Assembly (NCBI GenBank): GCA_964448085.1
Contig: CAYUUX010000001.1
Coordinates: forward strand, 22,465 to 86,464
Reading direction: 5' to 3'
Origin: an uncultured Gammaproteobacteria bacterium
Lineage (GTDB): Bacteria; Patescibacteriota; Microgenomatia; UBA10105; UBA927
DNA length: 64,000 bases
Shown: piece after piece, positions 22,184 through 49,673 of the stretch
Layout of the letters: each line of letters starts with the position of its first letter
How positions within the stretch are numbered: position 1 is the stretch's first letter
Translations under genes and position numbers: made by a program
The notes under the pieces: generated by a model
What the model saw: only the letters and a program-made list of their open reading frames with translations
Told to the model about the DNA's origin: nothing
Database searches by the model: none

Positions 22184-22219
22184 ACAGACGAATTCTTTTG
22201 CTCTTTTGAAGCTAAATTT

Positions 22220-22293
22220 GCCCCCATCGTCTAGCGGCCTAGGACGGCGCCTTCTCAAGGCGCAGACCGCCGGTTCGAATCCGGCTGGGGGTA
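22220..22293 (+). tRNA. tRNA-Glu (anticodon CTC)
   Basis: Manual cloverleaf: acceptor GCCCCCA/TGGGGGT (G1.U72), U8, D-arm GTCT-AGCGGCCTA-GGAC, anticodon arm GCGCC-TTCTCAA-GGCGC (U33, anticodon CUC), T-arm GCCGG-TTCGAAT-CCGGC, discriminator A; no encoded CCA. Confidence 0.85.
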
Positions 22294-22380
22294 CCCAATT
22301 CCGACTTGTTAATATTCAAATAGTTTGAATTTTTTCTCTTCAGCTACTTTATTGCTATATATCCCTCCATTTGATATACT

Positions 22381-23802
22381 ATGGGCTATTATCATTCTAT
22401 GAATCATGAGTCTTTTCCCCTTTATAGCCAGTCAGACAGGGAACCAATCTTACCCACAGAATCACTATTATTACCGGCTACTAGAAAAATTGCCCAAATG
22501 TTCCATTCTATATATAACCAAAATGTCCCATCGGGCATTCAAGAACGATTTAATGAATTGAAGAACAATAGCACTCAACACATTTCTATAGATCAATCCA
22601 TCGATGGAACAAGCTTTTCTTCAAACGATCCGAATTCAAGAGATGTTGTTGGATATATGGATCCAGAAACAGATATTATTCATCTCCCAAACGCATCAAG
22701 AGAATCAACGGTAATACATGAAATGTTCCATTTTCTTTCCTCCAACCCATCAACGAAACATTCTGGATTTCATTACCATAACGTTCTCTGGACAAAATAT
22801 TTAAACGAAGCATTTACTGAATTTCTAACCTTTAATACCATACGTCGTGATGTTCATGGCGTATTGAAGCCTGATGCTAATTCAGACAATGCACAAAGAG
22901 GAATAGAAAAATACTTAACTCGTGGGTATGATCCCTATGAAGAGAAAACAGAAAGCTATAGAACTGCCTATGATACCTTGCTTGATACTGTTACCTATAT
23001 CCCATCAGACAAAAAAAAGGATGTTATGATCCGGTTCATTGATAGCTATTTTTCACAAAATCTTGACGGGGTTATTGACGCGCTTTCGCTATTTACATAC
23101 ACCGATTACACTGATTTTGACAAACGAAAAGGGCCACCAATCAAACGTTTAGTATCAGAATTCCTTCATGAAAGTTTTGAAAATATCGCATTGCATAAGA
23201 TTGAAACATGGAAAGATCATTTAGACCATCTTCCATTAACAACGAATTTATTTTCTACCACAAAAGAGCGATCCGAATATGCAGTTATCCAAAAAATGGT
23301 GCGGCTGATAACGCAACAAAGCAAGGATACTCTCGTCGATGTTCATATATTGTTTTCAGACAATATCAAACAAAGAAAAGGTATACAAACGGATATGTAT
23401 TCTAATAACTTATCATCATTTATCTTGATTAGTACTGATTTATTAGATGCAAGCAAGTACTTAATTCTTTCCAACACTGGGGTCTTCTGGGAAGCGTATC
23501 GATTGCTTTTATTAGAACAGGCAGCAACGTTAGCCCAACACAGCATCATATTTAATAAAAAAGACGTACAGAATGCAATGTCGTCAGTTATAAGCCGGAT
23601 TGATCCGAATCAGCAAAAAACCGTTGATGTACTTCGACAACTTCTGCAAAACGACCCTGGTAATCCTCGTCATATGGATATGATACGTAGTATTCTTGGC
23701 ATTGACGATATCTTCTCAATGGTTATCGATGATGGTATTGAGAAGATATCTTCCATACGACAAGTCGACACCGTACTCAGACGTTATAAAAACAAACATT
23801 AA
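22381..23802 (+). CDS. orphan HExxH-motif protein (putative zinc metallopeptidase-like), no signal peptide
   Basis: 473 aa; only recognisable feature is STVIHEMFHFLSS (HExxH, about nt 22717-22731); rest helical, no match to families I can name; AT-rich and first gene after tRNA-Glu. Start ambiguous (22381 or Met7 at 22399; TATACT box at 22375-22380). Confidence 0.5.
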   Translation: MGYYHSMNHESFPLYSQSDREPILPTESLLLPATRKIAQMFHSIYNQNVPSGIQERFNELKNNSTQHISIDQSIDGTSFSSNDPNSRDVVGYMDPETDIIHLPNASRESTVIHEMFHFLSSNPSTKHSGFHYHNVLWTKYLNEAFTEFLTFNTIRRDVHGVLKPDANSDNAQRGIEKYLTRGYDPYEEKTESYRTAYDTLLDTVTYIPSDKKKDVMIRFIDSYFSQNLDGVIDALSLFTYTDYTDFDKRKGPPIKRLVSEFLHESFENIALHKIETWKDHLDHLPLTTNLFSTTKERSEYAVIQKMVRLITQQSKDTLVDVHILFSDNIKQRKGIQTDMYSNNLSSFILISTDLLDASKYLILSNTGVFWEAYRLLLLEQAATLAQHSIIFNKKDVQNAMSSVISRIDPNQQKTVDVLRQLLQNDPGNPRHMDMIRSILGIDDIFSMVIDDGIEKISSIRQVDTVLRRYKNKH

Positions 23803-23928
23803 ACCAAAACACGAAGTATAAAATAACAACACCCGTTAGCTAGGATCTACTTCATCTATCATAATTTCACTTTCCACCCTTCATAAACACCTTTACACCT
23901 TATGTAATAGGACATATCATGGATATAT

Positions 23929-24486
23929 ATGAAAAAAGCACCAAAAACGGCAGAGCCGACTGTAGAACCAATAACGAATAGCGTTGAGGAACAAATTCCT
24001 CCCGCCCCACCAGTTGAACCGATTACCCCGCCTCCAACAGTTCGGAAAAATACTGCACTTTTCCCTTTATTATTCCTCGTTCTGGTTGCAGCAGGACTCA
24101 TCGTAGCGTTTCCGGATGTGCAAAACATTGTTTCCCAAGCAGCATCTAAAAAATGTCAACCCATCGCACGCGTTATGATCAACCCTGGGTCTATTGAAAC
24201 AATGACAAACAGTAAGGCTACAGAACTCTCGGTTATGGCATATGACAAATACAACATGCCGGTAAAACAGGGAGTAAAATACGACTGGGGAATTAGTTCA
24301 ACAAACAGTGTCGGCACGGTAAAAGCTCGCCACGACTTGGCAACATTTATCCCTTCAAATGTTGGTATGGGAGACTTATACGTAAAGACGACCAACAACT
24401 GCACAAAAAATGCGGTCATTGGTTCCGCAAAGGTCATTGTGAAGCAGGGTATTGCCCCGACACCGACAACGAAGAAAAGAAAATAA
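23929..24486 (+). CDS. membrane-anchored hypothetical protein with Pro-rich N-terminus and C-terminal beta-rich (Ig-like?) domain
   Basis: PPAPPVEPITPPP then TM LFPLLFLVLVAAGLIVAF; C-terminal about 110 aa alternating beta pattern. Confidence 0.45.
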   Translation: MKKAPKTAEPTVEPITNSVEEQIPPAPPVEPITPPPTVRKNTALFPLLFLVLVAAGLIVAFPDVQNIVSQAASKKCQPIARVMINPGSIETMTNSKATELSVMAYDKYNMPVKQGVKYDWGISSTNSVGTVKARHDLATFIPSNVGMGDLYVKTTNNCTKNAVIGSAKVIVKQGIAPTPTTKKRK

Positions 24487-24534: not shown

Positions 24535-25476
24535 ATGATTTGGGAGCGACATAAACGTTCTGGAGTATCAAAACTTTTTCGGTTAATCATTTTTTTTGCA
24601 TGCGTTGTGGGTTGTATAGTTCTTTTCCGACGCATTTTTCCAAAACCAGTAGTTATTTCCCCCATTCCCCCGGAAGAAAAACAAGAGGTAGCGTCAAACA
24701 ACATTCTTTCACTCTTTAGAGCGAAAAAAAATCCTGATGATCTAAAAAAACGCATCCGGGAGACGATCGGGTTGACATGGAAAAACTATTCCATCCTTGT
24801 TGTGGATACGCAATCTGATTTTCGGGCAGGAATTAATGAGGAACAAATCTATACTGCCGCATCCGTAAATAAAATACCGATTCTCGCAGCGCTCTATATT
24901 CAGGTGCAAGCAGGAAAAGTAGATTTAGATAAAAGCATCACGCTTCAAGCTGAAGATATCCAAGATTACGGTACCGGGTCCATCCGCTATTCCCCACCTG
25001 GTACGACGTATTCAATTAAAACACTTGCCAAGCTTATGATGCAACAAAGCGACAACACCGCGGCGTATATCCTTTCCAACCATATCGTTGGTGTTGATGT
25101 TGTCCAGCAGTTCGTTTCCGATTGGGGAATGACGCAGACAGATATGATTAACAACAAAACCTCCAACGCCGATATTGCCGCGCTTATCAAAAAAATCTAT
25201 GAAGGGAAGATCGCCAATGTTGCATACACAAAAGAAATGCTTTCCTTTTTCAAGGATGGAGAATTTGAGGATCGTCTTCCGGGGCTTCTTCCAAAAGACG
25301 TGACTGTATATCACAAAATCGGCACAGAAATCGGCATCATGCATGATGTGGGTATCGTGGTTGGACCAACGACCAAATATTATATTGGAATTCTGACGAG
25401 TGACGTCAATGATGAGGAAGCGACAACAAAATTGATGGCAAAGGTATCCAAACTCGTCTACGATTACATGAATTAA
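24535..25476 (+). CDS. class A beta-lactamase-like serine hydrolase, membrane-anchored
   Basis: S-x-x-K (ASVNK), SDN (QQSDNTAAYIL) and KTG-like (KIGTEIG) motifs in the order and spacing of class A beta-lactamase/PBP-like fold; N-terminal TM. Confidence 0.7.
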   Translation: MIWERHKRSGVSKLFRLIIFFACVVGCIVLFRRIFPKPVVISPIPPEEKQEVASNNILSLFRAKKNPDDLKKRIRETIGLTWKNYSILVVDTQSDFRAGINEEQIYTAASVNKIPILAALYIQVQAGKVDLDKSITLQAEDIQDYGTGSIRYSPPGTTYSIKTLAKLMMQQSDNTAAYILSNHIVGVDVVQQFVSDWGMTQTDMINNKTSNADIAALIKKIYEGKIANVAYTKEMLSFFKDGEFEDRLPGLLPKDVTVYHKIGTEIGIMHDVGIVVGPTTKYYIGILTSDVNDEEATTKLMAKVSKLVYDYMN

Positions 25477-48998: not shown

Positions 48999-49595
48999 TT
49001 ACTCTGCTGGCATCACGGTCTGGAACCCTTTGATCCCATAACCGTTCATAAACTTATTCAATAGATTTTCATTATTCTCTTCTTTGTTCCACCAAATGGT
49101 TTGCATTCCTAATTTGTCTGCTGCTTCTATATTTTCTAAAGAATCATCCATAAACAAACATTCTTCGGGCTTTGTGTTTAGTCTTTCGCAAGCTAATAAG
49201 TAAATCTTAGGGTCGGGTTTTTTAATACCTTCCACAGCAGAGTTTATATAAATATCAAAAATACTGAAGTCGAATTTTTCTTTCCAATATTTTAGGGCTA
49301 CTGCATTTCCGTTATTAATGACTGCTATTTTATATTTGCTTTTCAATGCGGGGAGCAATTCCCATAAATCATCAAATTTCTCATACTTTTCTGGAATCAA
49401 ACAAACAGCCCGTTTAATTTTTTCATCGCTCAATTTAAGCTTTTCTTTTATATCGCTAATTAATTTAATGTCATCTAAATGGTTGAACAAGCATTCTATA
49501 TTCTGAGTATTGATTTCGTCCGAAGTTTTTGGGGTGTAACCATCCCTCTTAAAAACCAGTACCCCAACCATATCAAAAAGAATAGCTTTAATCAT
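48999..49595 (-). CDS. HAD-superfamily hydrolase (subfamily IA-like)
   Basis: Motif I ILFDMVGVL (DxDxV), motif II/III region, motif IV FMDDSLENIEAADKLG; about 33% GC. Start at MIKAILFDM; the upstream 13 codons in the ORF track overlap the tRNA. Confidence 0.75.
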   Translation of the reverse strand: MIKAILFDMVGVLVFKRDGYTPKTSDEINTQNIECLFNHLDDIKLISDIKEKLKLSDEKIKRAVCLIPEKYEKFDDLWELLPALKSKYKIAVINNGNAVALKYWKEKFDFSIFDIYINSAVEGIKKPDPKIYLLACERLNTKPEECLFMDDSLENIEAADKLGMQTIWWNKEENNENLLNKFMNGYGIKGFQTVMPAE

Positions 49596-49602
49596 AGTCG
49601 AG

Positions 49603-49673
49603 CTGCGGGGCTTGGATTCGGACCAAGATAACATCCTCCAGAGGGATGCGTACTACCGTTATACGACCCCGCA
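49603..49673 (-). tRNA. tRNA-Gln-like (anticodon CTG) with atypical T-loop (C55)
   Basis: Manual fold on minus strand: acceptor UGCGGGG/CCCCGCA (U1-A72), discriminator G73 (both GlnRS-type identity features), U8, D-arm GUAU-AACGGUA-GUAC, anticodon arm CAUCC-CUCUGGA-GGAUG (U33, CUG), 4-nt variable loop, T-arm CUUGG-UCCGAAU-CCAAG (C instead of U at position 55). Plus-strand reading rejected (C at position 33). Confidence 0.5.

Follow-up and report, generated by a model that had tools for sequence, protein, structure and literature searches.

Here, we analysed P0001, an orphan protein of 473 amino acids (aa) encoded beside a tRNA-Glu(CTC) gene on contig CAYUUX010000001.1, within a stretch of 64,000 nucleotides that is referred to as the window in the following. 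P0001 is the founding member of a very small and rare protein family, which is confined to bacteria of the candidate phyla radiation (CPR) type. Judged from its conserved sequence features, this family is probably a zincin-like metallopeptidase that has not been described before and that no database model covers. A preliminary description of the locus had placed the 473-aa open reading frame (ORF) as the next gene after tRNA-Glu(CTC) and had reported a single HEMFH motif about 115 residues in, neither signal peptide nor transmembrane (TM) segment, and no resemblance to anything that could be named. All four statements held up. The tRNA is placed alike by ARAGORN and Rfam, and JGI gene calls, made on a 99.99% identical metagenome contig of 157 kb, give identical coordinates for P0001. 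Exactly one HExxH motif is present (HEMFH, residues 113-117). A simple hydropathy test, no dedicated predictor, yielded no signal peptide or TM segment in P0001, with a hydrophilic N-terminus and a maximum of 1.1 in Kyte-Doolittle windows of 19 residues. Searches against Pfam, NCBIfam, PDB sequences, PADLOC and PHROGs remained without significant match.

The family is remarkably small. In a word-indexed search of 5.8 billion clusters, P0001 found only itself, and word-indexed searches with the single protein and two alignments returned family members only. When 1.84 billion representative proteins were searched exhaustively with phmmer, four relatives emerged, of which P0002, P0003 and P0004 are full-length (29-31% identity to P0001), while P0005 with its 232 aa consists of the C-terminal domain alone. 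A motif-seeded metagenome scan added P0006, a sixth and more divergent full-length member (22-24% identity). In total, the family comprises six clusters in approximately 15 billion proteins, five of them full-length at 22-31% identity, which answers the question of phyletic distribution in favour of a patchy one. All members are located on low-GC, CPR-like chromosomal contigs, the longest of which spans 348 kb. A local hidden Markov model (HMM) search detected no paralogues among the 8210 ORFs of all loci retrieved, and conserved neighbour genes among the homologue loci were not found either. The gene of P0005 lies on a contig without a zincin domain (L088, 3522-4220 and 6324-9806), at a distance of about 2 kb from the two genes of a type I restriction-modification system (Methylase_S and N6_Mtase/Eco57I) and from a HARE-HTH protein, which makes a possible defence neighbourhood. 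Two genes downstream of P0006, a protein of 370 aa is encoded, the N-terminus of which has a hydrophobic anchor (L090, 12099-13211, equal to L091, 12150-13262). It contains HELGH and a later N-E-D-F-A, looks gluzincin-like by eye and has no Pfam or PHROGs match; as a candidate relative of the family it was rejected, since it is not detectably related (HMM E = 2).

A HExxH motif as such says little, as it arises in 3.6% of shuffled P0001 sequences and about half of its occurrences in databases were attributed to chance in an earlier survey (PMC3650047). The motif carries weight here because it is conserved across the family, not because of its mere presence. Invariant residues in the alignment of the N-terminal domain include T110, H113, E114, H117, F118, N142, E143, T146 and T150, and the five full-length members share the signature T-x-x-H-E-x-x-H-F, followed 25-35 residues on by [LF]-N-E-[AGS]-[FL]-T. 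We conclude from this alignment that the HExxH of the P0001 family is not a chance occurrence. In the Cerda-Costa & Gomis-Ruth scheme, gluzincins are defined by a backing helix, three strands and an active-site helix and by an ExxA/S/G 'glutamate helix', which provides the Glu ligand and a small residue at position +3 (PMC6414381). HEMFH, with its His, Glu and His invariant in all five full-length members, falls within the predicted helix 108-120 and thereby fits the active-site helix. A third zinc ligand, named in the preliminary description as a point to look for, has a candidate in E143, which is part of the invariant N-E-x-x-T on the next predicted helix. With T146 at +3, E143 fits the glutamate helix, a fit that concerns only sequence and secondary structure, and Thr takes the place of Ala, Ser or Gly. 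As far as sequence goes, the zincin idea of the preliminary description has thus largely proved right.

Structure prediction points in the same direction. AlphaFold2 applied to the single sequence gave an unusable model (pLDDT 34), which was rescued by an alignment of five sequences (pLDDT 75.8, pTM 0.74). In the latter model, the N-terminal domain is composed of helices 27-45 and 51-62, strands 68-71, 92-94 and 99-103, and helices 108-120 (with HEMFH) and 136-154 (with N-E). This predicted order, a backing helix and three strands ahead of the active-site helix, fits the N-terminal sub-domain of gluzincins. Weak Pfam matches over the strand and HExxH segment are all to zincins (Aspzincin_M35, E = 0.046; Tox-MPTase4, E = 0.017). 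Sub-threshold Foldseek matches in the PDB are headed by MtPrpR, which contains an IrrE-like domain (PMC6765138), and by the peptidase domain of collagenase T, while those in BFVD comprise four SprT-like and two IrrE-like phage proteins and PolyVal metallopeptidase or large polyvalent proteins. Profile searches of PDB sequences with the whole protein, the N-terminal or the C-terminal domain returned noise only. Based on the model, the N-terminal domain of P0001 probably adopts a zincin fold: the element order of the gluzincin core is in place, a significant Foldseek neighbour is not. The C-terminal domain, although predicted with confidence, found no match among PDB sequences or by Foldseek (PDB, BFVD), and no relatives outside the family were detected. 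Its interpretation as a degenerate second zincin arisen by internal duplication was dropped (hhalign, 0.7%). The earlier impression that the rest of the protein is helical is roughly correct, except for the three-stranded sheet ahead of the motif and additional strands at 239-351 in the model.

The closest relatives outside CPR bacteria appear to be found in phages. A tblastn search of 50,697 phage genomes gave one marginal match (E = 0.04) to a 2222-aa protein of Vibrio phage PS25B.1, the N-terminus of which carries an LPD22 domain ('large polyvalent protein'). In this match, 'GYMDPETDIIHLPNASRESTVIHEMFHF' is aligned with 'GYYDPENSIIRLTESADLSTFLHEFSHF'. This HExxH module recurs in 50 phage records within proteins of 2000-4000 aa, among them Bbp10 of BPP-1. 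Bbp10 has been counted among the homologues of internal virion protein D (PMC4819975), and its residues 700-1000 were a seed of the zincin family CLCA_X, which occurs for the most part on phages, prophages and plasmids (PMC3650047). Employing hhalign, the CPR family's N-terminal domain was matched to an alignment of 11 phage-module sequences with a probability of 90.0% (P = 1.7e-6), compared with 0.2% for the C-terminal domain as control. The observed score of 43.4 was reached by none of 150 column shuffles in which the HExxH was kept (mean 21.0, sd 2.8, maximum 35.3), and the similarity to the phage module thus reaches beyond the HExxH. Taken at sequence level, the CPR family is probably homologous to the phage HExxH module; it is a neighbour of CLCA_X in sequence and not a member of it.

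The gene itself deviates in composition from its surroundings. Its GC content amounts to 36.4% compared to 43.2% for the window, and its first 120 nucleotides, hand-counted at about 39% in the preliminary description, measure 39.2%. At third codon positions (GC3), P0001 is the lowest of the 61 window genes with 31.9% (z = -2.65). The dip is limited to the P0001 ORF, and both downstream genes are normal. Contigs carrying homologues have a GC content of 34.5-38.2%, close to that of the P0001 gene. The lowest overall GC content in the window (34.6%) belongs to a gene of the HAD-family hydrolases (48999-49634) beside tRNA-Gln (49602-49673); its mechanically called ORF overlaps the tRNA by 33 nt and the true start is probably located further in.

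Comparison of the locus in related genomes provided hints on where the gene comes from. The window belongs to a chromosome of Candidatus Gottesmanbacteria (Microgenomates, CPR/Patescibacteria), and its LysRS shares 65-67% identity with the enzymes of metagenome-assembled genomes of this group. The closest relatives keep the block SecA-SpeE-SerRS-Ham1-LysRS-GreA-tRNA-Glu(CTC), and more distant Microgenomates keep its core of SecA, SerRS, LysRS, GreA and tRNA-Glu. The same tRNA-Glu adjoins GreA in L006, L008-L010 and L013-L018, and the side of the tRNA facing away from GreA, occupied by P0001 in the window, harbours different genes in L006, L008, L015, L017 and L018. In none of 80 related tRNA-Glu/GreA/LysRS loci was the P0001 gene present at the syntenic site. 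Atypical composition (GC3 z = -2.65) and variable content of the site (differing genes), as used to recognise genomic islands, are both observed, which is weak evidence as the relatives are distant. Taken together, we consider it fairly probable that the gene was acquired or that the tRNA-Glu site undergoes rapid turnover.

Several observations on these loci are reported in their own right. The gene of P0004 (L086, 831-2441; 28% identity) also adjoins a tRNA-Glu(CTC) gene (L086, 487-561), the acceptor, D and T arms of which are identical to those of the window and of L006. In L086, the tRNA is divergent from the P0004 gene, a 164-aa ORF abuts the tRNA 3' end, PfkB is located downstream and both flanks differ from the window. 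The abutting ORF had been taken by eye for the C-terminus of a recombinase; without Pfam or PHROGs support, this idea was dropped. The variable interval of the closest relative contains a 121-aa ORF (L006, 2840-3205; 'LTVAEAASFLKKHPGTIRRWITNKQLKARKI') with the look of an excisionase or MerR-type helix-turn-helix protein, a sequence resemblance that hints at use of the interval by mobile DNA. A complete chromosome of Gottesmanbacteria contains, some 3-9 kb past tRNA-Glu (L008, 396-6740), a region that has the look of a defence island when translations are read by eye, with a 1019-aa Eco57I-type restriction/methylase-like protein, a 540-aa OLD/AAA-like ATPase and further small ORFs. The LysRS ORF of L008 (9995-12085) encodes 696 aa compared to 485 aa in the window, with about 210 extra aa at the C-terminus. 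In two Logan assemblies (L002, L005), which are independent of each other and represent the same population as the window, a contig ends at window position 22271, in the T-arm of tRNA-Glu, which may reflect strain heterogeneity at the junction or a mere assembly break.

With modest confidence, we suggest that P0001 is a cytoplasmic, zinc-dependent endopeptidase of the gluzincin type with a private targeting domain at its C-terminus, encoded by a conflict-type gene akin to phage-delivered modules. The analysis shows the gene and its family, the conserved motifs, the predicted order of secondary-structure elements, the composition, the missing synteny and the short profile match to the phage module, while zinc binding, proteolysis, target, cytoplasmic action and mobile-element origin are all properties that we infer. 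The first approximately 140 ordered residues would form the metallopeptidase domain, in which zinc would be held by H113 and H117 on one helix and by E143 on the next, with E114 as general base activating a water molecule for peptide-bond cleavage and a strand of the preceding three-stranded sheet holding the substrate. The separate, family-specific domain of the C-terminal approximately 190 residues would most likely serve target selection or regulation of the protease. P0001 would then cut one or a few specific proteins inside the cell rather than degrade proteins in bulk; as it has no export signal, intracellular action is probable. The gene itself may be a 'conflict' gene that evolves fast, descends from a mobile element and moved horizontally to its place between tRNA-Glu and a native pair of membrane-protein and beta-lactamase-like genes. 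Such an origin appears most likely because of the nearest detectable relatives, modules of giant virion proteins (ejected or internal) in BPP-1-like podophages, the low GC content and the absence of the gene from the same locus in relatives. A further scenario, which we regard as speculative and rather improbable, sees in the family stand-alone descendants of ejected-phage-protein zincin modules that were captured by CPR bacteria, fused to a C-terminal domain without relatives and turned into a rapidly diversifying conflict protease, used in phage defence or abortive infection or as a weapon on the host cell, recurring beside tRNA-Glu(CTC) of Gottesmanbacteria.

CPR/Patescibacteria have small genomes rich in unannotated genes and depend on other cells, and rare, fast-evolving proteases akin to phage-delivered modules are good candidates for molecules of CPR-phage or CPR-host conflict. 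If P0001 is indeed a captured conflict protease, novelty would lie both in its target and in its architecture of protease plus sensor; if it merely is a lineage-specific housekeeping protease, the gain would be one of routine annotation. The P0001 family would add a new branch to the zincin superfamily, together with a confidently predicted C-terminal domain unmatched in PDB and BFVD.

A number of points weigh against the suggested gluzincin-type endopeptidase of mobile-element ancestry. No family model reaches significance, and the structural model of P0001 has no significant Foldseek neighbour, with best E-values of 1.3 (PDB) and 0.15 (BFVD) and TM-scores of at most 0.25 (PDB) and 0.40 (BFVD), the highest of which stem from short local alignments of about 130 columns to small proteins. 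The match to the phage module is short (28 columns), and its hhalign P-value is optimistic because the phage family was picked as the top database match, at a tblastn E-value of 0.04. The CLCA_X consensus HExxHxxxD is not found in the CPR family, which has S, K, A or H at the acidic position, where the phage module has E. No relatives were detected in IMG/VR or among PLSDB plasmids. Low GC content alone is weak evidence for transfer, as the gene with the lowest GC content in the window encodes an ordinary HAD hydrolase, and loss of synteny would be expected anyway between relatives as distant as these (at most 67% LysRS identity). Neither an integrase nor another recombinase or mobile-element gene flanks P0001, and the tRNA-Glu 3' end (19-27 nt, up to three mismatches) has no second copy in the 64 kb. 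As notable direct or inverted repeats flanking P0001 are likewise absent, a classical tRNA-targeted island with att repeat and integrase was rejected as an explanation. Of the suggestion that the gene had been acquired, the patchy spread, the missing gene at all 80 related loci and the deviant composition are borne out, while integrase and att-like repeat are not there to support it.

But, is P0001 a protease that acts at home? Polymorphic toxins carry their toxin domain at the C-terminus, whereas the metallopeptidase domain of P0001 is N-terminal and the protein stands alone. It also has no signal peptide, and no secretion-system, immunity or chaperone gene adjoins P0001 or any homologue. We therefore consider it improbable that P0001 is an exported effector or toxin, which would leave the cell by a non-classical route and cut proteins of a host or neighbouring cell, even if the conserved zincin motif, the weak match to Tox-MPTase4 (a polymorphic-toxin metallopeptidase), the patchy distribution, the rapid divergence (28% protein identity beside near-identical tRNA-Glu genes) and a TraG/VirD4-like coupling protein about 8 kb from P0006 would fit such a role. 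So would the nearest relatives, which are modules of internal virion protein D homologues (PMC4819975), given that domains of polyvalent proteins were proposed to act after injection into the host cell (PMC5512222). Similarly improbable is a zincin-derived protein without protease activity, in which the motif residues would be kept for binding of metal or ligand in a regulator or scaffold, or an N-terminal domain that is no zincin at all. The top PDB match by Foldseek, MtPrpR, is indeed non-proteolytic and has an IrrE-like domain (PMC6765138), the frequency of chance HExxH motifs is high (PMC3650047) and significant fold or family matches are lacking; however, the HExxH residues of MtPrpR are not conserved, whereas H, E and H as well as N-E-x-x-T are invariant in the P0001 family at 22-31% identity. 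The predicted element order of an active zincin core and the similarity to the phage module past the HExxH argue further for the protease.

Concerning the origin only, P0001 might be native: a vertically inherited, fast-evolving and lineage-specific gene with a low GC content owed to weak selection in a genome biased towards AT, and with an ancestral tRNA-Glu neighbourhood. Two members adjoining near-identical tRNA-Glu(CTC) genes, the chromosomal, CPR-like contigs (348 kb at most) on which all members lie, the lack of integrase, att site and IMG/VR or plasmid relatives, and another ordinary window gene with even lower GC content agree with this possibility, which we nevertheless hold to be doubtful. 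L006, despite its near-identical tRNA, and L008 lack the gene at the conserved locus, and L086 differs in the orientation of the tRNA and on either flank. The family amounts to just six clusters among about 15 billion proteins, and no other window gene has so extreme a GC3 value, while both downstream genes are of normal composition. The preliminary description had also considered joint action of P0001 with the two genes that follow it, as a three-gene envelope module of protease, membrane protein and beta-lactamase/penicillin-binding protein (PBP)-like hydrolase working on the cell's own wall. The three genes are indeed adjacent, lie on the same strand and are enclosed by runs on the opposite strand. 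The second gene, however, follows only after a gap of 126 nt that holds a promoter-like site, the GC contents differ (36.4% versus 44.8% and 41.7%), either neighbour occurs in none of the five homologue loci, the beta-lactamase-like gene is found in L006 without a HExxH gene, and P0001 lacks an export signal while both neighbours are membrane-anchored. A common envelope function is hence unsupported and very unlikely.

The features of the locus are compiled in Table 1. The three-gene plus-strand block between minus-strand housekeeping runs, as outlined before, is confirmed by the gene order, the runs being SecA-SpeE-SerRS-Ham1-LysRS-GreA on one side and Lon-OFOR-ferredoxin-NifU-NifS-Suf on the other. 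Since promoter-like sites are not more frequent across the region than in shuffled sequence, the site at 22352-22380 is a candidate only. Translation of P0001 may start at M7 (ATG at 22399), where most homologues begin in the alignment. The 185-aa neighbour had no match in a Pfam scan, and the beta-lactamase-like protein stayed under the score cut-off of NCBIfam bla_class_A. A homologue of the latter gene (49% identity) is located at the edge of the L006 locus in the same relative orientation; the gene is likely a native neighbour of Lon. At codon 463 of P0001 (window position 23768), the window has A and all five public contigs of the same population have G, which changes D463 to G463 in the low-confidence C-terminal tail. 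This is the sole substitution in P0001 among the compared contigs of 99.96-99.99% identity, which is insufficient for measuring selection.

Table 1 Features of the P0001 locus (window coordinates).
Feature	Position	Strand	Basis and remarks
tRNA-Glu (anticodon CTC)	22219..22297	+	ARAGORN; Rfam RF00005, 60 bits
83-nt spacer with promoter-like site TTGCTA-17-TATACT at 22352-22380, TG ahead of -10 hexamer	22298..22380	+	Consensus scan
Orphan protein gene P0001, 473 aa	22381..23802	+	ORF call; alternative start M7 at 22399
N-terminal zincin-like domain (probable), approx. residues 25-160	22453..22860	+	AlphaFold2 pLDDT approx. 80-91 over ordered parts
HEMFH (H113-E114-M-F-H117)	22717..22731	+	H, E, H invariant in 5/5 full-length members; proposed two zinc ligands and general-base Glu
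NEAFT (N142-E143-A-F-T146)	22804..22818	+	N, E, T invariant in 5/5 full-length members; E143 is proposed third zinc ligand
C-terminal alpha/beta plus helical domain, approx. residues 283-445	23227..23715	+	pLDDT 84-97; conserved in all six members, stand-alone in P0005
Promoter-like site TTTACA-17-TATCAT (10/12) within 126-nt gap upstream of 185-aa gene	23892..23920	+	Consensus match only
Neighbour of 185 aa with Pro-rich N-terminus, single TM segment and beta-rich C-terminus	23929..24486	+	Kyte-Doolittle (19 residues) 2.82 at residue 43; GC 44.8%
TM-anchored class-A beta-lactamase/PBP-like serine hydrolase	24535..25476	+	Pfam Beta-lactamase2, 8.4e-49; GC 41.7%

How does the family compare to known metallopeptidases? 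Third-ligand motifs of classical gluzincins are 'NEGFA' or 'NEGHT' in M1 and 'NEAISD' in M4 (thermolysin). P0001 resembles them in its HExxH and in N-E-x-x-T on the following helix, with T146 at the position of the Ser/Gly turn (PMC6414381). It differs from M1 and M4 in the spacing of 25-35 instead of 18-19 residues and in lacking GxMEN or another family motif, and neither sequence nor fold matches were obtained to these families. Going by the model, P0001 is also like ImmA/IrrE (MEROPS M78) and SprT/Spartan in its layout, with a small cytoplasmic HExxH domain followed by a sensor-like second domain. The third ligand of IrrE lies about 26-27 residues past the second His, and the P0001 family is comparable in this respect. 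In contrast, P0001 has no Pfam match to Peptidase_M78 or SprT (M78 even at E up to 10), Foldseek E-values to IrrE-like, SprT-like and MtPrpR proteins all exceed 0.1, and instead of the XRE-type repressor gene neighbouring ImmA/IrrE, its neighbours are GreA/tRNA-Glu and a membrane protein.

Closer parallels are found in conflict systems. The metallopeptidase (MPTase) core of polyvalent proteins and polymorphic toxins consists of an N-terminal helix, three strands, the HEXXH helix, a Glu helix and a variable insert (PMC5512222). The predicted core of P0001 shares this order of elements, and the weak match to Tox-MPTase4 and the sub-threshold Foldseek matches to PolyVal proteins fall into the same group. 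Unlike the MPTases of polyvalent proteins, P0001 is not embedded in a multi-domain effector and is flanked by housekeeping genes, the chromosomal contigs in question reaching 157 kb and 348 kb; compared with both types, no Pfam model reaches its cut-off and no immunity gene or secretion apparatus adjoins. From the Bbp10-type module, which is part of a virion protein of 2000-4000 aa, P0001 differs as a stand-alone chromosomal protein of 473 aa with an unrelated C-terminal domain, and the downstream motif N-E-x-x-T of the CPR family is replaced by H-E-Q-F-A-R-G-F-E-x-Y-L-x-E-G-K-A-P-S in the phage module. Neither the CLCA_X/Bbp10 module nor the CPR family is represented in Pfam, and both share a strand-turn-strand followed by S-T-x-x-H-E-x-x-H-F and, downstream of an insert that varies, a conserved helix with a Glu.

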